From Octopus vulgaris (taxonomy: Eukaryota): a DNA stretch of 64,000 bases. The notes under the pieces were generated by a model that was given only the letters and a program-made list of their open reading frames with translations, was not told the DNA's origin and searched no databases. Location of the stretch: the NCBI GenBank assembly GCA_951406725.2, contig OX597822.1:28892001-28956000 (forward strand). The letters are read 5' to 3'. The position numbers and the translations under genes were made by a program. Positions 31,163 through 58,836 of the stretch are shown in pieces (positions within the stretch are counted from its first letter, which is position 1; each line of letters opens with the position of its first letter).

Positions 31163-31563
31163 ATGATTATGGCTGCCTCCTCGTTATCGAGTATGGCCAT
31201 TGCACGAAGCTTAACTGTTCCTGGTGCTGTGATCGAATGTGACTTTTTAGCCCAGCTAAATATCTACAATGTCTTGTACAAAATTGGCAACTAAAACCTT
31301 TACTGGTAATAGCCGGCTGTAGTCGTAACTGGGCTTCATGTACCTTTGCATGTCGTTTAAGTCCTCCTGCCGAATTACACTCTCTTCCACATGCCCGACA
31401 GATATGATCAGTATAGTGTGTTACACCACCACCAGTGGCCAGGTTGTCACTCATCTGTCTCGTTTTATGACTCCGAAGATGACTCATGAGTCCAGCTTTA
31501 CTGAGGCAGGGTCTTGCACAGACATTGCATGTCAGAATCAAAGGAAGACCCTTTCCTTCTGGA
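31163..31563 (-). mobile_element. 3' end of an RTE-type LINE with three C2H2-like zinc fingers
   Basis: [64 protein letters not shown], then a short tail GGCCATACTCGATAACGAGGAGGCAGCCATAATCATAAT; embedded in (CATA)n. Confidence 0.65.
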
Positions 31564-31681
31564 ATACATACATACATACATACATACATACATACATACA
31601 TACATACATACATACATACATACATACATACATACATGCATGCATGCATAATTCATTGCCTATCTACACTTTCATTTATAG

Positions 31682-32821: not shown

Positions 32822-33909
32822 GAGGAGAGAGTGCTGAAAAGTTCCTGGCTTTAACCCCTTAATGGATCAATTATTTTGACATGGCGTTTCATTTCAGAGC
32901 ACAATTTTTTATTTCCTTTTTTAATTATATACACTGTGTTAATCACAAAAAAAAAGATTTTTATCTTGTTTCTTTTATTTCTTATTATAGAAATTAAAAT
33001 GTACTTTTACTCATTTGGATTTAAACGAGTTAACTCGGACATTGAAAAAATACATATAACTTAACTATCTTTTATAAGATGTATTGCTTTTAAATCAAAG
33101 GAATTTTTTTTTAAATGAGATGGACAGTTTATTTAGAATGATAATTTTTAAAACAAGGAGTTACACACAAAGTTATCTTGCAAACATCACACATGTATCT
33201 GCTTTCTCTTCGAATCTTCTTTCCTTTAGCGTCTCTCTTCTCTGCGCATTTTGCACAGTCTTGTGGGGTTCTTTTTCTTATTACTTGGTGGTATTTCCAT
33301 TAGAAAGTGACCAGCTGGGGCAAATCTTATTGGATGTGGGATCGACGATGGTCTTCCTGACTTCGTGGGAAGCAATAAGGGCCTATATTTTTCAATAATC
33401 TTGGTGATTATTTGCATTCGAAATTTCAGCGGTTTCATAGCAGAAGCTGAAGTTTCCAAAGATGCTTAATACAAAACATAAGCATTCCAGATAGCCAAAT
33501 CCATCAAATGAAAAAATACTTTTTTATAATATTTTTCCCACGTAATTTTTTTTTCTCCGAGTAAATTCGTGAATTCTCAAAAATGAAACGACACAAAATA
33601 AATAAACTCGTTTGAGTACTAAAATTAAAAGTTAATTTTGACCGAGTATACTCGTCTAGATCTAAAAAGATACATTTGGGATGCACGAATAAACTCGGGA
33701 TAATCTATTAAGGGGTTTTAAGAGTATAGCGAAAGGCTTGGTTGGAGACCCAATCTTCCGAGATCTTTTACAGAGCTTAGAAAAACTGAATAACCGCTGC
33801 AATAAGTGTGTAAAACTGAAAGAGGAATAGGTTGAATAAAATCACAATCAACTTATCCTTTTGTATTTTCTTTTACCTAAAGTCAGGAACTTTTCAGCAT
33901 ACACTCGTA
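32822..33909. mobile_element. Decayed non-autonomous mariner-like element
   Basis: TIRs TGCTGAAAAGTTCCTGGCTTTA / TAAAGTCAGGAACTTTTCAGCA; an extra orphan right end at ~32760-32793. Confidence 0.55.
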
Positions 33910-33977: not shown

Positions 33978-35044
33978 GGATCTTTACCTTTTGACCGACA
34001 GATTTTTAAAATAATTTTTTGTAACTAAACACTTTCAAACTTCGGACACTGGTAGAATATATCATATAAAGAAGGCGCAATGGCCCAGTGGTTAGGGCAG
34101 CGGACTCGCGGTTTCGATTCCCAGACCGGGCGTTGTGAGTGTTTATTGAGCGAAAACACCTAAAGCTCCACGAGGCTCCGGCAGGGATGGTGGCGATCCC
34201 TGCTGTACTCTTTCACCACAACTTTCTCTCACTCTTACTTCCTGTTTCTGTTTTACCTGTATTTCAAAGTGCCGGCCTTGTCACTCTCTGTGTCACGCTG
34301 AATATCCCCGAGAACTACGTTAAGGGTACACGTGTCTGTGGAGTGCTCAGCCACTTACACGTTAATTTCACGAGCAGGCTGTTCCGTTGATCGGATCAAC
34401 CGGAACCCTCGTCGTCGTAACCGACGGAGTGCTTCCCTCGATATCATATAAAACATCTTTTACTCTTAGCGTTTTTTGAGAAAAGCTTATATTTAGGAAG
34501 TTATTTCACGTTAAAGTTGTATTTCGATAATTTCAACCAATCAATGACGTGTATTCAGCTGAATAAATTTACTGCCGTTGTTTGTCAACAACAACTATCG
34601 GCGGTGTATTTTTCGTTTGTCACTGTTATTTATGACATCGTTCGTGCGTTTGTACTGGTTTTAGCGTTAAGTTTTTAGGGTTACGGTTAAGGTTTTAGGG
34701 TTAGGGTTAGGGTTTTAGGGTTAGGGTTAGGGTTAGGGTTAGAGTTAAGGTTTTAGGGTTAGGGTTGTCATAAATAACAGTGACAAACGAAATATACACC
34801 ACCGGAAGTTCTTGTTGACAAACAACAGCATAATTTTATTCAGCTTAATACATGTCATTGATTGGTTGAAATTATCGAAATACTACAACTTTAACGTGAA
34901 ATAACTTCCTAAATATAAGCTTTTCTCAAAAGCGCTAAGAGTAAAAGATGATTTATATGACACATTCTATCAGTGTCCGGATTTTGAAAGTGTTTAGTTA
35001 CAAAAAAATATTTTTTAAATCTGTCGGTCAAAAGGTAAAGATCC
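33978..35044. mobile_element. Long palindromic MITE with GG termini and a central TTAGGG tract, interrupted by a SINE
   Basis: GGATCTTTACCTTTTGACCGACAGATTT..AAATCTGTCGGTCAAAAGGTAAAGATCC; arms ~290 bp after removing the SINE; 8-bp TSD GATAATGG/GATATTGG. Confidence 0.85.
34071..34440 (+). mobile_element. tRNA-derived SINE nested in the MITE, 12-bp TSD
   Basis: TSD ATATCATATAAA at 34059-34070 and 34441-34452; A/B boxes present. Confidence 0.88.
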
Positions 35045-36997: not shown

Positions 36998-37460
36998 AAT
37001 CAATTATTATTGTTTTACTTCTCAGATCGCTCGGTCTTGTTTGTTCTGGTAGATTCTGTGTGAGCGGACAGCAGCCTGCTGTCAGAGGTTTCACAGGGTC
37101 TCTTTCCGCACATTACAAGCTTTGATACTTGGTTGTTAATTATCGTGGGACACATTCAACATCCAAATACCAATCTCAAAATCTTATGGTAGTAGAATAG
37201 TGTTTTGGGCTTGCTCTGCTCTCGTGTGAATTCCGATTTCTCTGACATATTTCTCGAACTTGGCTATTAGTTCTCCGAGTGGCCCTACAACTGCTGGGAT
37301 GACAGACATTCTCTTCATAGCCCAGATTCTTGCAATTTCGCCTTTTACTAGTCTATACTTTTCAATCTTATCAAATTCTTTGTCACTCGTGCGTGCATCC
37401 CCAAGTATTGCAATATCTATAATCTTGGTTTCCTTTTTTCCTTTATCTACCACAACAATA
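36998..37460 (-). mobile_element. Dong/R4-like LINE 3' fragment
   Basis: IIDIAILGDARTSDKEFDKIEKYR..VIPAVVGPLG..AQNTILL (RLE domain) plus 3'UTR, next to (TAA)n. Confidence 0.75.
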
Positions 37461-37594
37461 TATGTTCATATCAATATAAACTGTTGACACTTCGTTGTAT
37501 AAGCTCAGTTATCAGCTCCGTCAGTTGTAGTACTTAATAAATTATTGAGGCAATTATTATTCATATATATCAATATATATTGTTCTCACTGTAG

Positions 37595-37699: not shown

Positions 37700-37833
37700 G
37701 TAAGTAGCCGCCATGACACTGATTTAGTGATGAATTTTCTCATAAAATCTGTTCTCTCTCTCTCTCCCAGTCTCTCTCTCTCTCCCTACCTCTCTCTCTC
37801 TTTCTCATTTATTTCTCCTTGTCGTTTAATTAG

Positions 37834-38008
37834 GAATTTCCATCGATTTTGACACACCGTCGGTTACTGAGACAGACCATTCGATAAAAGATGCTTATAA
37901 CACAGTGAAGAGTTCGGCGTTGGATCATTTAGATGAACTACTGAATAAAGAGCCGCCTTTGTTTGATCATCAGTTCAGTGTTCCGCTGCAGAAAATTGGA
38001 AATAAAAG
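37834..38008 (+). CDS. ANKAR: ANKAR coding exon 5 (inferred GC donor)
   Basis: TAG|GA; GISIDFDTPS..FSVPLQKIGNK; the phase-2 donor AAG|GCAGGT is needed to join exon 6. Confidence 0.8.
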
Positions 38009-38352
38009 GCAGGTTTTCTTTTGTTTTTGTTTTTGTTTTGTCTTTTTTTGTCTTGATAAATATATAACGAGTGAAGAATTCAGTTATCCTTTATCTTTTA
38101 CTTGTTTCATGCGGTCATGCTGGGGCACTGCCTTCAAGAACTTTTAGTCGAATGAATCAACTCCAGCAGTCTTTTTCTTTTTTTTTTCTTTTTTTTTTTC
38201 TTTTTTTTTCTTTTTTTTTTTCTTAAGCCTGGTACTTATTCTATCGGTCTCTATTGCCGAACCGCTGAATTACGGAGTTGTAAACACACCAACACCGGTT
38301 GTCAAGCGGTGGTGACGGAAAAAAAGAGACAAACACAAACACACACACACAC

Positions 38353-39418: not shown

Positions 39419-40266
39419 GACAGATTTCTTTCAGTTTCCGTCTACCAAATCCACTGGCAAGACCTCATAGTGGGACTGAACCCGGAAACATGTGGTTGGA
39501 AACCAAGCTTCTTACCACACAGTCACGCCTGCGTCTATAGCTGTTGGAATTACATTTATTCATCAATAACGTATGGCTGACAAATCATATAATATGAATG
39601 AAAACATGGCAGAGAGCAATGATACTGCCATATCGATTTGTATAATGATTGACCCACAGTCATTTAGTCATAACGCTTTTGAACAAATAAATACCATTCA
39701 CAGAGTTGATGAGTATAATTATAAAAGAACATCCGGATGACCTGGAGAGAGGTAATGAATTGTCCAGCAAGTGGGGAGTTGCTGTTAGAAATGTCAAAAG
39801 TAAGATATAAATTGACAGTTTAATTGTGTTTCTTGACAATATCATTACACACACACACACACACACATACATATATACATATATGATCAATAATAATAAA
39901 TGGTAAAATTAATTAATAACCTTACCAAGTAGGGTATGCTAAAAGAACCATTATTGATAAACTTATACAAAAATTATTATAATTAGAAACAATTATAATT
40001 AGGGCTTAGCAAAATTGCTTCACAACATACCGAAAATTAGAAATAGCAGTTAAATACTATTCTACTACCATAAGATATCTCCCAGACAGCAATACTCTCA
40101 ACACACAGGCAAAGAGAAAAAATAACGAATCCACTCGGCTTTGATTAACTATATACGCGTTTCTGGATTAAAGATATGTAAAGGGAGATATCTTATGGTA
40201 GTAGAATAGAATTTAAAGGCTATTTCTAAATTTCGGTATATGTGGTGAAGCAATTTTATATACATA

Positions 40267-40324
<58 letters not shown>

Positions 40325-40510
40325 CTTTCAGTTAGTTATTTGTTTATCTACTATAATAATACTCTTGTATTTTTCTCCGTCACAACATATGGATGAGAAA
40401 GGAAGGGGTGAAAGATGAATAAGGAAGGAAGGGGTGATGGCAAACTGTTAGTGGGAGCGTTTCAACTTTGAGTGAGTATATGTGTGTGTATGTAACAGGA
40501 AGGTGTGTGA

Positions 40511-40550
<40 letters not shown>

Positions 40551-40808
40551 TGTAAGGGAGATGGCGAGCATTCAACGCTGAAAAGAAAAATCAAACAGCG
40601 TTTCAACTCTGTGTGAGTATATGTGCGTATGTACGTGTGTATGTACGTGTACAAGGGAAGTATGTGAACGTTTGTATGTGCGAACTAGCCTTCTTTCAGT
40701 AACAAGCGATGATCGATGTCACATCTCAAACGACAACCAATAGATAACATTAAGAACTGTATTAATTTGATTTACCATCCATATTTTGTTTTCTTCAAAA
40801 TAATTATT

Positions 40809-42352
40809 ACCTCGGAACTTCCCAGAAACATTTCGACGAAATTTCCCGGAAGTTAGATTATCCTTGGACCATCCCATACAGTTATCGACGAAATTTTCCG
40901 GAAGTCAGAAATCCTCGGAACTTCCCAGGCAGTTTTCGACGTAATTTCCCAGAAGTTACAAAATCCTCGGAACTTCCCATGCAGTTTCCGATCAAATTTC
41001 CCGTGAGCTACAATATCCTCGGAACTTCCCATGCAGTTTTAGACCAAATTTCCCGTGGTGTTTACAGCGAAATTTCCCGAAAGTTAGAAAATCCTCGGAA
41101 TTTTCCCGGAAAGTTTTGACCAATTTTCCCGGAAGTTAGAAATTCCTCGGAACTTCCCGTGCGGTTTTCAGCGAAATTTGCCGGAAGTCAGAAAATCCTC
41201 GGAACTTCCCATGCAGTTTTCGACGAAATTTCCCGACAGCTAGAAAATCCTCCATGGAGTTTACAACGAAATTTCCAGGAAGTTATAATAATCCTCGGAA
41301 CTTCACATGCAGTGTTCGACCAAATTTCCCGGAAGTTAGAAAATCCTCGGAATTTGGAATGGAGTTTTCAACGAAATTTCCCGGAAGTTAGAATGTCCTC
41401 GGAACTTCCTTTGCAGTTTTCGACCAAATTTCCAGGAAGTTAGAAATCCTCGGAACTTCCCATGCATTTTTCGATGAAATTTCCCATAGGTTAGAAAATC
41501 ATCTGAACTTTCCGGAACATTTCGACCAAATTTCCCGGAAGTTAGAAAATGCGCGGAACTTTCCATGCAATTTTCCGTAAGTTAGAATTACTTCGGAACT
41601 TCCCATGCAGTTTTCGACGAAATTTCTTTCAATTCCTCGGAACTTTACGACCAAATTTCCCGGAATTTCGAAAATCCTCGGAACTTCCCATGCAGTTTTC
41701 GACGAACTTTCCAGGAAGTTAGAATATCCTCGGAACTCCCCCATATAGTTTATAACGAAATATCCGGAATTTATCACATCCTCGGAACTTCCCATGCAGT
41801 TTTCGACGAAATTTCCCGGAAGTTAGAACATCCTCCGAAATTTACCATGGAGTTTTCAACAAAGTTAGAATATCCTTGGAAGTTCCCATGCAGTTTTCTA
41901 TGAAATTTCCAGTAAGTTAGAAAACCCTCGGAACTTCCCATGCCGTTTTCGACGAAATATCCCGGGAGTTCGGAAATCCTCGGAACTGCCCATGGAGTTT
42001 ACAACGAAATTTCCCGGAAGTTAGAATAAACTCGGAACTTTCCATGAAGTTTTCAACGAAGTTACCCAGAAGTTAGAAAAATCCTCGGAACTTTCCAGGA
42101 ACTTTTCACTAAATTTCCCTGAAGTTAGGATGTCCTCGGAACTTCCCATGTAGTTTTCTATGCAATATCCCGGAAGTTAGAAAATCCTCGGACTTTCCTA
42201 TGCAGTTTTCGATGAATTTTCCCGGAAGTTAGAAAATCCTCGGACTTTCCCAGAAGTTATCGACGAAATTTCTCTGGAGTTAGAAAATCCTCGGAACCTC
42301 CCAGGGAGTCTTCGACCACATTTCCAGGAAGTCAGAGTGTCCTTTCCAGGAA
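40809..42352. repeat. Tandem array, ~52-bp unit, roughly 30 diverged copies
   Basis: Consensus CCTCGGAACTTCCCATGCAGTTTTCGACGAAATTTCCCGGAAGTTAGAAAAT. Confidence 0.93.
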
Positions 42353-42356
42353 GCTT

Positions 42357-43717
42357 TGGTCATTTGGCGAACAGCTAGGTCATTTTATCGAATTCGTTTA
42401 GCGAACCGCCAAGTCATTTTATCGATCTCGTTTGGCGAAACGCTACGTCATTTTATCGATTTCATTTGGCGAACCGCGACGTCATTTTATCGATCTCGTT
42501 TCGCGAACCGCTACGTCATTTTATCGTCTCGTTTGTCGAAGCGCTACGTCATTTCATCGATCTCCTTTAGCGAACGGCGACGTCGTTTTATCGATCTCGT
42601 TTGGCGAAACGCTACGTCATTTTATCGACCTTTTTTGTCGAACCGCTAGGTTATTTTATCGATCTCGTGTGGCGAACCGCTAATTCATTTTATCGATCTT
42701 GTTTGTCGAACGGTTAAGTCATTTTATCGATCTCGTTTGTCGAATTCTATGTCATTTTATCGATCTCGTTTGGCGAACCGCTAGGTCATTTTATCGATCT
42801 CGATTGGGGAAACGCTATGTCATTTTATCGATCTCGTTTGCGAACCGCTACATCATTTTATCGATCTCGTTTGGCGAACCGCTAAGGCATTTTATCGATC
42901 TCGTTTGTCGAACCGCTAAGTCATTTTATCGAACTCGTTTGTCGAACGGCTAAGTCATTTTATCGATCTCGTTTGGCGAACCGCTACTTCATGTTATCGA
43001 TCTCGTTGACGACCCGCGAAGTCATTTTATCGATCTCCTTTGGCTAAACGCTACGTCATTTTATCGATTTTTTGGGCGAACCGCTATGTCATTTTATCGA
43101 TCTCGTTTGTCGAACCGCTAAGTCATTTTATCGATCTCGATTGGGGAACCACTAATACTTTTATCGATCACGTTGGTCGAACCGCTAGGTAATTTTATCG
43201 ATCTCGTTTGTCGAACCGCTAAGTCATTTTATCGATCTCGTTTGTTGAACCGCTAAGTCATTTTATCGATCTCGATTGGGGAACCGCTACCTCATTTTAT
43301 CGATCTTATTTGGCGAAACGCTGTCATTTTATCGACCTCGTTTGTCGAGCCGCTACGTCATTTTATCGATCTCGTTTGGTGAACCGCTAAGTCATTTTAT
43401 CGATCACGTTTGTCGAACCGCTACATCATTTTATCGATCTCGTTTGTCGAACCGCTAAGTCATTTTATCGATATCGTTTGGCGAACCGCTAAGTCATTTT
43501 ATCGATCTCGTTTGTCCAACCGCTAAGTCATTTTATCGATATCGTTTGGCGAACCGCTAAGTCGTTTTATCGATCTCGTTTGTCGAACCGCTACGTCATT
43601 TTATCGATCTCGTTGGTCGAACGGCTACGTCATTTTATCGATCTCGTTTGTCGAACCGCTAAGTCATTTTATCGATCTTGTTTGTCGAACGACTAAGTCA
43701 TTTTTTCGATCTCGTTT
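42357..43717. repeat. Tandem array, 34-bp unit, roughly 40 copies
   Basis: Consensus GTCATTTTATCGATCTCGTTTG(T/G)CGAACCGCTA(A/C). Confidence 0.95.
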
Positions 43718-44057
43718 ACCGGTGAGTGTCTTACATTATAAGACACAAAAAGAAAATGACTCTCCCCAGACACAACAAAATAAAAGAATTATTAGGCCAA
43801 ATACTTGGTTTTCTGCCTTATTTATATATAAAATACTACACTTACCCGTCATTTTTGACGGCACGAGGCCAGCTAGTATTATTATATTATTTTATACTAT
43901 TTTGTCACAGTGCTGTGAAAAACACTTGTATAAGAACACCGACCTTAATACTTTAGTACCCAGTACTTATATTTATAGATGGACAGATGGATGGATGGAT
44001 CTATATGATTAGGTATATCTATGTATTTAACAATCCTTTATGCAAACGTTTTTGCAG

Positions 44058-44241
44058 ATACTACACTATCGTGATAGAGTTTGAAACTTACTACCCTCAG
44101 ATTCCTCAAGAACCATTATGGATCCGAGCTTACCTAGAAGAATTGACCAAACTGAAGACTAAACGAGCAACAAATATAGAAAACAGCATATTTGAAGTAT
44201 TCAAAAAACATTTCGGTCTGAAGCGAGCACTTAAGAGCAAG
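44058..44241 (+). CDS. ANKAR: ANKAR coding exon 6
   Basis: TGCAG|A..AAG|GTGTTG; YYTIVIEFETYY..FKKHFGLKRALKSK. Confidence 0.9.
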
Positions 44242-44839
44242 GTGTTGTTATGTATTTACGTTTTCCTATTTTTCCATCTTTCAATTTATTTCCTCTCAGA
44301 ATAATACGCTGGTCTGTATGATTGCACTCTCTTGTTGTAAATAACTGATGAAGGTTCTGCAATTTCTTTCTGGAGGAGGCACATGACCTAGTGGTTAGAG
44401 CAGCAGACTCGCGATCGAATCTCAGACCGGGCGATGTGTGTGTTTATGAGCGAAAACACCTAAGCTCCACGCGGCTCCGGCAGAAGGGGTCAGCAAAAGA
44501 AATGCATCACCTCATACCGAAGTTCAGAAATAGCAGCCAAAATCTAAGTCATTTCTTCTACTTAAAAGAAGGGTCTACCAGATATATCAATAATAATAAA
44601 GAGTAAAATTAATTAATTAATTAATAATTAATAATTCCACCAAGTAGTACTTGGCATGTTAAAAGGACCATTTACGGTAAACTTAAACAATATTTTTTAT
44701 AATTATGAATATAATTAAAATTAGGTTCGGTATGTGGTTAAGCAAATTTTTTTGCCAAACCCTAATTATAATTATATTCATAATTATAAATATATATAAA
44801 TATATATATGTGTGTGTGTGTATATATATGAATATATAT

Positions 44840-50391: not shown

Positions 50392-51648
50392 CAAGGTCTT
50401 GCAGGTAAATTGAGACCAATTTTAAGTAGTTGACTTAGTAGGTTTAACATTTCATTTTTTGACAAAACCTTGCTTGCTTAAAAATCTAATCCTCCTCTTT
50501 ATTTTTCAGGTAAATAGCGAACTTATTCGACAATTGAAAGTCATGGAACAACAGAATCGTTCCGCCATTGTTATTTTGGCGCGCGCCGAGCACACAGCCA
50601 ATAAAATTACTAAGTTGACGAAACTCCCAAAAGTAACAGTTTATCGTGTTTATAAACAATTTAAAGAAGGAAATATTAATAGAAAAGAATACAAGAGTCA
50701 AAGTGATTCCAAGCGCGATCCAAAGTTTCTTGCTGGCCTCAAACGCTCGGTTGGAGCCAACCCATCCACACCCATAACAGCTCTTGAAAAGAAACGCAGT
50801 GTGTCCCTTTCCACAGTGTCCAGAGCTATGAACAGGAACATTGGCATGAGTAGCTATGTTCGACGACGCTGTCACCTCCTAAAAGCCAACGCTGAAGCAA
50901 TCAGAGCCGAGAGATGCCCAAAGCTTCTGTTATTCACCAAGCATCAAGATGCAGGAAGAACTCTCGTGTTTGTGGACGGGAGTTCACTGTGGACGCTGAG
51001 GCTAATCGCAAAAATTCTCGAGTGATTGCATACAACCCTTCTCACGCCGCCCTCCACAACCACACCCGTGTTTGAGACTAAGAATCCTACGTCTGTGATG
51101 CTATTTGGAGCCGTGACGAGTGATGGAAGTGTCATGGATTCACACTTCATTGAGTCTGGCTTCACTGAGTCGGCATAAAGGAGTACCTGGACATTCTGAA
51201 TAACTCTTTCTTACCTTGGATGGAGCAGAAATTTGGGTTTGACAATGTGGTGCTTATCCAGAATTCTGTACCATCCCATGGGTCAAAAGTAACACAGGCC
51301 TTCCTTGGTGAGGAGTTGCTATTTTTTGTGAAGGCCAATATCTGGCCCAGTAGTAGCCCAGATTTCAACCTTCTCGATTACTTTCTATGGGATGTACTTC
51401 AAGCAACGACCAATGCTTCATCACACTGGAGTGTCAACAGTTTGTAGACTTGCATCGTGCGTGCGACACGCAAAATCAAAAAGGCGGAGCTTGCGGCAGC
51501 TGCAAAAACAAAATTCGTTCACGTGTGGAGGCAGTAATGGGCGGCCATATTGAGTGATAAATGTTTTTGTTGTAATAAATGCTACATTAGAAAATTTAAC
51601 CAGTTTTATGTATCGTAAAAATTGTCTCAATTTATCTACAAGATTCTG
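50392..51648 (+). mobile_element. Full-length but defective Tc1/mariner element, DD37D (maT) spacing
   Basis: TA-flanked TIRs CAAGGTCTTGCAGGTAAATTGAGAC / GTCTCAATTTATCTACAAGATTCTG; HTH, LVFVD, VMLFGAV, QNSVPSH (D to N), WPSSSPDFNLLDY with 37 residues between the second and third catalytic positions; frameshifts. Confidence 0.88.
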
Positions 51649-58392: not shown

Positions 58393-58836
58393 GGATCTTT
58401 TCAGTTTGAATGGCAGTGTTTCTAGCGGTGTCATATGAAATTGTCACCCATAATTATGACCCTAGTATCGATCTATTGCATTTCAATCTGTTTTAGGGCT
58501 AGGGTTAGAGTTAGGGTTAGTTAGGGTTGGTTAGGGTTAGGGGTAGGGGAAGGGTATCTTTTTTTCTTCAGAAATGTAAATAAACCCAATCTGTTTCTTA
58601 AACGAGGGACATTTTCATACGGCACGAAATGTTTTCACCTCAATAGACATCATTGATTGGTTGAAATTGCAGAAATTGAAGAAAACAACAAATATCTTAC
58701 AAGCTATAGGATTTTCTCAATAAAGCCAAGAGAAAAAGATGTTTTATAAACACATTCTACCAGTATATGAAGTTTAAAAGTGTTTAGTTATGTGGAAATT
58801 ATTTTTAAAAAACTGCCATTCAAACCGAAAAGATCC
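58393..58836. mobile_element. GGATC-ended MITE with TTAGGG-like tract, inserted in (TAG)n
   Basis: GGATCTTTTCAGTTTGAATGGCAG / CTGCCATTCAAACCGAAAAGATCC; related to 33978-35044. Confidence 0.8.

Follow-up and report, generated by a model that had tools for sequence, protein, structure and literature searches.

A short Helitron in an octopus ANKAR intron encloses two joined satellite arrays that it probably did not disperse

The stretch of DNA analysed here (the window, 64,000 nucleotides of the Octopus vulgaris genome) contains the gene ANKAR. Its exon matches ANKAR proteins, the best being an Argonauta protein at 74%; from this match, and from the placement of exons by tblastn, we consider the genome to be octopus-type. 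Using the Argonauta homologue P0001 as a tblastn query, one exon was placed at 37833-38009 (+; residues 376-434, bounds approximate) and the next at ~44056/44058-44241 (+; residues 434-495), with its acceptor AG at 44056-44057. The P0001 residues encoded by these two exons are consecutive, and the Helitron that concerns us lies between them. An open frame at 39570-39740 was rejected as an ANKAR exon, because it has a stop at 39740 and does not match P0001 or P0005; the region 39570-39799 reads as a 56-codon open frame and is followed by GTAAG at 39800. The ANKAR introns also hold several decayed transposon coding fragments that resemble, by eye, a piggyBac-type cysteine-rich transposon end (33129-33469, -), a Tc1/mariner transposase (50426-51447, +), a zinc-finger-bearing LINE end (31167-31652, -) and another LINE end (37184-37465, -). 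Short interstitial TTAGGG-like runs are found in the window at 34661-34766 and 58493-58548.

The Helitron starts with TCTACTATAATAATAC at 40347, preceded by A, and finishes with the hairpin CCGTCATTTTTGACGG at 43846-43861, an 11-nt spacer and CTAG at 43873-43876, followed by T. These ends and the two abutting arrays between them are all located where the preliminary description had placed them. The hairpin comprises a 6-bp stem and a 4-nt loop (z -2.4; equalled by 4 of 200 shuffles). Sequence of this short, non-autonomous element is present as a 5' part at 40347-40810 (+), with family copies matching up to 40810, and as a 3' part at 43779-43876 (+), defined by its end anatomy and by comparison with the family.

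Genome searches yielded at least 1514 first-look candidates for the 5' end and at least 1345 for the 3' end, from each of which the best 40 were scored (89-94% for the 5' end, excluding the window itself) and 30 loci were returned. After dropping the window and two loci of another repeat, these top-scoring lists defined 56 family loci out of more than 1300 Helitron candidates. The two termini do co-occur elsewhere, since both were present at 41 of the 56 loci, 295-1399 bp apart (median 518); the family is high-copy and made up of elements of about 0.5 kb. Most of the 51 aligned family rows start with TC after an A, end with CT(A/G)(A/G) before a T and are surrounded by unrelated flanks; in many independent flanks the element has inserted between A and T and left no duplication. 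The family thus has the 5' TC and 3' CTRR of canonical Helitrons, together with their GC-rich hairpin some 11 nt upstream of the 3' terminus; this hairpin is conserved among its copies. Three longer copies retain a helicase-end remnant, GIYLPAPVFSHGQLY or close variants, which we take to be the C-terminal motif of Pif1/RepHel, and the family probably descends from a RepHel element. The window copy is typical, differing from the family majority at 21 of 327 positions (6%). The family ends and the flanking ANKAR exons uphold the earlier identification of a non-autonomous Helitron inside an ANKAR intron. Other copies of the same short Helitron are nested or arranged head to tail (L020, L022 and L024), one of them beginning at the 3' end of another. 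At the ANKAR insertion site we observed neither an empty state nor a Helitron devoid of arrays; the contigs of three organism C runs extend from 44011 or 44023 to 44350, at ~96%, and contain nothing at 43904-43998.

The interior of the element is occupied by a 52-bp satellite array at ~40811-42357 (+), with about 30 degenerate units at 84% to the pooled majority unit, and by a 34-bp satellite array at ~42358-43717 (+), with 40 units at 90% to theirs. CpG observed/expected ratios are 1.29 and 2.59, respectively, as compared with 0.85-0.90 in the flanks; we discarded CpG richness as a special feature, because CpG positions in the units are roughly as well conserved as the others and the flanks are barely depleted. 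All four common variants of the 52-mer retain TTC-N3/4-GAA and [CA]GGAA words, a pattern that the inverted structure of this unit could also produce, and a 29% variant of the 34-mer disrupts TTTGGCG. We presume these words to resemble STAT, ETS, kB and E2F motifs.

The two arrays meet in a 52-to-34 junction (42346-42385, +) that also occurs at three other sites, all of them 52-34-52 sandwiches without Helitron ends. The pattern for this junction was built from three of its four sites and produced four matches genome-wide (0 in the control); the fourth site, at 62.07 Mb of C9, was outside the design and has in common with the window a private first-unit variant. The 34-to-52 junction was found at five sites, four of which were used in pattern design, and the outer flanks of the sites with either junction are unrelated. 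Its recurrence at three other sites indicates that the 52-to-34 junction is not a chimera and bears out the preliminary view of the arrays as a joined cassette. The cassette is real, its junction is inherited, and it is older than the insertion into ANKAR. The two satellites were joined more than once, because a mosaic of ~45 kb on C6 (122441000-122487000; L189-L194), in which 52-bp and 34-bp blocks alternate, contains a different 34-to-52 junction of its own, repeated four times; this repetition points to segmental duplication within the region.

A third, very abundant repeat, which is neither Helitron nor array and was absent from the earlier reading, follows the 34-bp array. It spans 43715-43782 (+; 68 bp) and is the short-arm remnant of a two-armed, retro-type fold-back repeat, presumably Penelope-like, that ends at the natural arm end of its family. 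Two-armed copies, with arms placed head to head, are bordered by 11-12-bp target-site duplications. Of 22 short arms, 8 stop 8-10 nt past the core motif and 14 at no more than 10 nt, the value for the window arm being 9. Additionally, many contigs stop at 43777-43785 with unrelated, mixed flanks. The natural arm end of the remnant and these contig ends suggest that a fold-back element inserted into the Helitron; since its other end was removed by the satellite block, the block would have arrived last. The same extremely abundant repeat, with a fixed long-arm end and a preferred short-arm end, was seen at L023, L030 and L177-L188. An Rfam search of six fold-back loci produced 71 matches, all below the gathering score and to hairpins only, with no hammerhead family among them.

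Contigs from several sequencing runs cover some of these junctions. Those from X1, X18 and X19, which bear three organism labels and come from two studies, begin at 43756 and continue across the 3' part of the Helitron, showing 0-1 differences; they traverse the boundary between fold-back remnant and Helitron with 23-27 letters on the fold-back side, which is below our 31-letter rule, and the X1 contig fully spans the boundary between Helitron and flank. A contig from X20, of depth 3.6, crosses from the 34-bp array into the fold-back remnant with 25 letters on the array side. Over 351 letters of the exon region, X20 departs from the window at 7, a hint that the composite is older than the split between X20 and the window. 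One of the runs X1, X18, X19 or X20 may be the assembly's own sample.

The satellites are widespread. First-look candidates in the genome numbered at least 235 for the 34-bp array and at least 177 for the 52-bp array; from these some 400 candidates, the top-scoring lists gave 60 ten-kb stretches, representing 50 sites, and 33-bp matches to the 34-mer at many loci were excluded from the counts as too short. Neither Helitron terminus was found near the arrays in any of the 60 stretches, that is, at none of the 50 other sites, and two of the stretches contained only short internal Helitron matches, at least 1.9 kb from the array. Likewise, none of the 56 other Helitron family loci from the top-scoring lists showed a match to the 52-bp or 34-bp array. 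At the outer junctions of the satellite block, a 25-mer and a 24-mer each matched the window alone at up to two mismatches, and BLAST with both junctions retrieved no other spanning match among the best 40 of 621 and the best 40 of 925. As far as detectable, the loaded element would thus be single-copy: a family of such elements is excluded, and one stray sibling is possible at 6% divergence, because the window copy is itself 6% off the family majority and a pattern allowing two mismatches could miss one or two diverged siblings. A satellite vehicle is expected to recur in loaded form, with identical inner junctions at more than one site, and our junction searches returned no such pair. Together, the absence of termini from 50 array sites, the absence of arrays from 56 Helitron loci and the single-copy outer junctions refute the proposal that this Helitron is a rolling-circle vehicle that moves satellite cargo; rather than lying mostly between these termini, the arrays occur genome-wide and independently of them.

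The surroundings of the arrays are varied. They end at varying phases in unrelated flanks and abut other satellites, with units of 13, 22, 25, 63 and 73 bp. Direct abutment of 13, 22/23, 25, 50-63 and 73-bp satellites was noted at L121, L126, L127, L139, L142, L144, L153, L158 and L212, and units of 73, 47 and 21 bp look derived from the 52-mer. Large fold-back satellite palindromes were seen at C9:114029000-114041100 (L202-L203) and C5:138027100-138038200 (L197-L198), in the orders 34-22-22-34 and 52-34-34-52. Left and right flanks of an array could be paired for measuring a deletion only at L129 and in the hAT-like group described below. At L129 (4257-6331) a 34+52 block separates the arms of a palindromic repeat, where the copy at L125 has ~510 bp; with L125 as the one comparator, arrays have here likewise taken the place of ~510 bp of host-repeat sequence. 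Helitrons and arrays may have some affinity, since the 34-bp array adjoins another Helitron-type family. At L130 (3336-5690) it is bordered by a TC-starting element on one side and by a 3' end of Helitron type on the other, and L128 (5210-5460) and L140 (5304-5750) share a junction between the 34-bp array and the Helitron-type family of L130. A scan for a hairpin and CTRR before T within 500 bp outside array blocks gave 1 hit in 40, as compared with 8 in 200 single-side controls, indicating no enrichment under a required 6-bp stem, which the 5-bp-stem end visible by eye at L130 escaped.

A different element does carry the 52-bp array. Five of the 20 fetched 52-bp sites have flanks in common, which extend to ends of the form CAGTGGCCC...GGGCCCTTG. 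Three complete copies show target duplications, with identity at 8 of 8 positions at L154 and 7 of 8 at L146 and L157, whereas the copy at L229 lies inside (TA)n, where the duplication is uninformative. These short terminal inverted repeats and the 8-bp target duplication are the features by which we assume the element to be hAT-like. Its non-autonomous copies extend over L154:4086-7161, L146:4205-8643, L157:1027-8206 and L229:848-2692, and others occur at L141 and L159. The pattern for a junction between a LINE and the 52-bp array gave 22 matches, of which 16 had an array, one a stub and five were plain LINE copies; the 17 sites with this junction in common are on 8 contigs, and six of them show the hAT-like 5' end within 1.5 kb. 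These results show that a hAT-like terminal-repeat element is a vehicle of the 52-bp array, which it carries inside LINE fragments. Tetris is reportedly a terminal-inverted-repeat (TIR) element with internal tandem repeats, and Tetris-like elements resemble the octopus one in having an array between terminal repeats. However, the octopus array, found in this setting at loci outside the window, appears to have been captured with LINE fragments and not to derive from the element's own ends.

Given the Helitron family, the independent arrays, the inherited 52-to-34 junction, the outer junctions matched only in the window and the truncation of the fold-back arm, we consider it likely that a common short Helitron, represented by this copy in the ANKAR intron, had its interior overwritten after insertion by a piece of a pre-joined 52/34 block. 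The Helitron would first have been pasted between A and T, with a RepHel partner acting in trans, and a retro-type fold-back element would then have inserted near its 3' end, at ~43779. A break inside the element would later have been repaired by copying in a 52-34 compound satellite stretch from an ectopic locus or a circle, a capture of the filler-DNA type in which what was left of the Helitron interior would have been lost, along with the greater part of the fold-back element. Afterwards, the arrays may have drifted or changed length locally. In the parts of the sources available to us, such copy-in repair matches the filler-DNA model for Helitrons (PMC6544945) and the repair routes considered for hybrid satellites of Drosophila (PMC7403614). 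The microhomology at the block ends, 1 nt at the Helitron 5' part and 3 nt at the fold-back remnant, is a weak repair signature and counts against this history, as do the lack of an observed intermediate state at the ANKAR site, the contact of the 34-bp array with another Helitron-type family and the bias of the 56 Helitron loci and 50 array sites towards the best matches. A chance landing is plausible, given that ~0.8 Mb of family sequence and ~400 array candidates yield ~0.1 expected events, both figures being lower bounds and other repeat families remaining uncounted.

Alternatively, the Helitron could have captured the block elsewhere and jumped once, loaded, into the ANKAR intron, its source being lost or too diverged. 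Both termini are intact, insect Helitrons are described as having captured internal DNA in steps and transposed afterwards (PMC6544945, in the part available), and one diverged sibling could lie beyond the reach of the junction searches. Yet neither BLAST nor junction-word searches of the two outer junctions found a second copy of the loaded Helitron, and an extra event plus an extra loss would be required, making this course unlikely. It is less probable still that a short seed with the 52-to-34 junction entered the Helitron and that the arrays then expanded there through unequal exchange or slippage. Beyond the first unit, no in-register likeness of the arrays was found across the junction shared by the window and the three sandwich sites (34-bp side, 0.82-0.84 in register and 0.80-0.86 out of register), as growth from a seed would predict. 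However, in-register likeness is also slight or absent when the sandwich sites are compared among themselves, which age alone can explain, and the window units, at 10-16% from their majority, carry changes that are scattered, like those of other sites. Growth from a seed would alter only the last two steps of the overwriting history and would leave the verdict on the vehicle unchanged. That the Helitron family amplified and dispersed both arrays as a rolling-circle vehicle can hardly be maintained: the window copy does have the anatomy of the oyster Cg_HINE elements (PMC7492417, in the part available), but the Helitron and array surveys and the unique outer junctions speak against it, as do the 17 sites at which another element carries the 52-bp array. 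An assembly chimera of unrelated repeats is equally hard to credit, for although the contig comparisons concern the junctions on the 3' side of the block, the 52-to-34 junction has its three homologues, contigs of three runs cross from fold-back remnant into Helitron, one spans Helitron and flank fully, and one shallow contig crosses from the 34-bp array into the remnant.

Both the Helitron and the arrays belong to known kinds. Helentron, HINE and DINE-1 elements are distinguished by subterminal inverted repeats and a T-rich (TT) target. Compared by end sequences alone, the octopus element lacks the TT target and has the canonical Helitron ends, TC...CTAG between A and T, not those of a Helentron. 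According to the portions available of the sources cited in this paragraph, oyster Cg_HINE Helentrons contain one and, exceptionally, two consecutive satellite-like arrays (PMC7492417), and 9 of 11 oyster satellites are associated with elements (PMC8268682). As in octopus, a rolling-circle element surrounds satellite-like arrays, exceptionally two in a row; however, arrays are regular parts of the Cg_HINE family, whereas none of the other 56 octopus Helitron loci has them. The insect Helitrons Sfru_Hel1Aa-c, for which filler-DNA capture is described (PMC6544945), resemble the octopus element in their TC...hairpin-CTRR ends, their site between A and T, their intronic location and foreign DNA joined at short homologies, but their loaded forms were amplified as subfamilies, whereas we found one loaded copy in octopus. 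In Drosophila, the unrelated 1.688 and Rsp-like satellites are joined, with the same junction in distant clusters and variable outer ends, and the mixed clusters move as a unit, for which microhomology-mediated repair or eccDNA has been proposed (PMC7403614). The octopus 52/34 blocks likewise show the same junction at distant sites (52-to-34 at four, 34-to-52 at five) and variable outer ends; however, new clusters in Drosophila settle within 1.688 arrays already present on the X, whereas in octopus the blocks have entered unrelated repeats, on many chromosomes, and make up fold-back palindromes.

Searches of the open-access literature returned neither a paper dealing with satellites of octopus or other cephalopods nor any description of these two; in the main text of a 2026 Octopus repeat annotation (PMC13282606), as far as available, no word begins with 'satellite', and its supplements or repeat library may contain such families. 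The preliminary description knew of no dual-array cassette in cephalopods; two-array Helentrons are already published for oyster (PMC7492417, in part).

The ANKAR locus records a layered history of Helitron, retro insertion and satellite capture, and cautions that an element may enclose satellite arrays between perfect Helitron ends without being their vehicle. More speculatively, and with considerable doubt, the arrays may belong to a genome-wide set of unrelated satellites, each containing transcription-factor words, which combine into blocks of mosaic or fold-back structure. These would invade introns and elements by transposase-free copying into breaks, with secondary hitching on mobile elements (shown for the hAT-like element, potential for the Helitron), and protein binding, rather than a transposon, would drive their spread. 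The finding thus raises the wider question of how short-unit satellite mosaics spread through octopus genomes.
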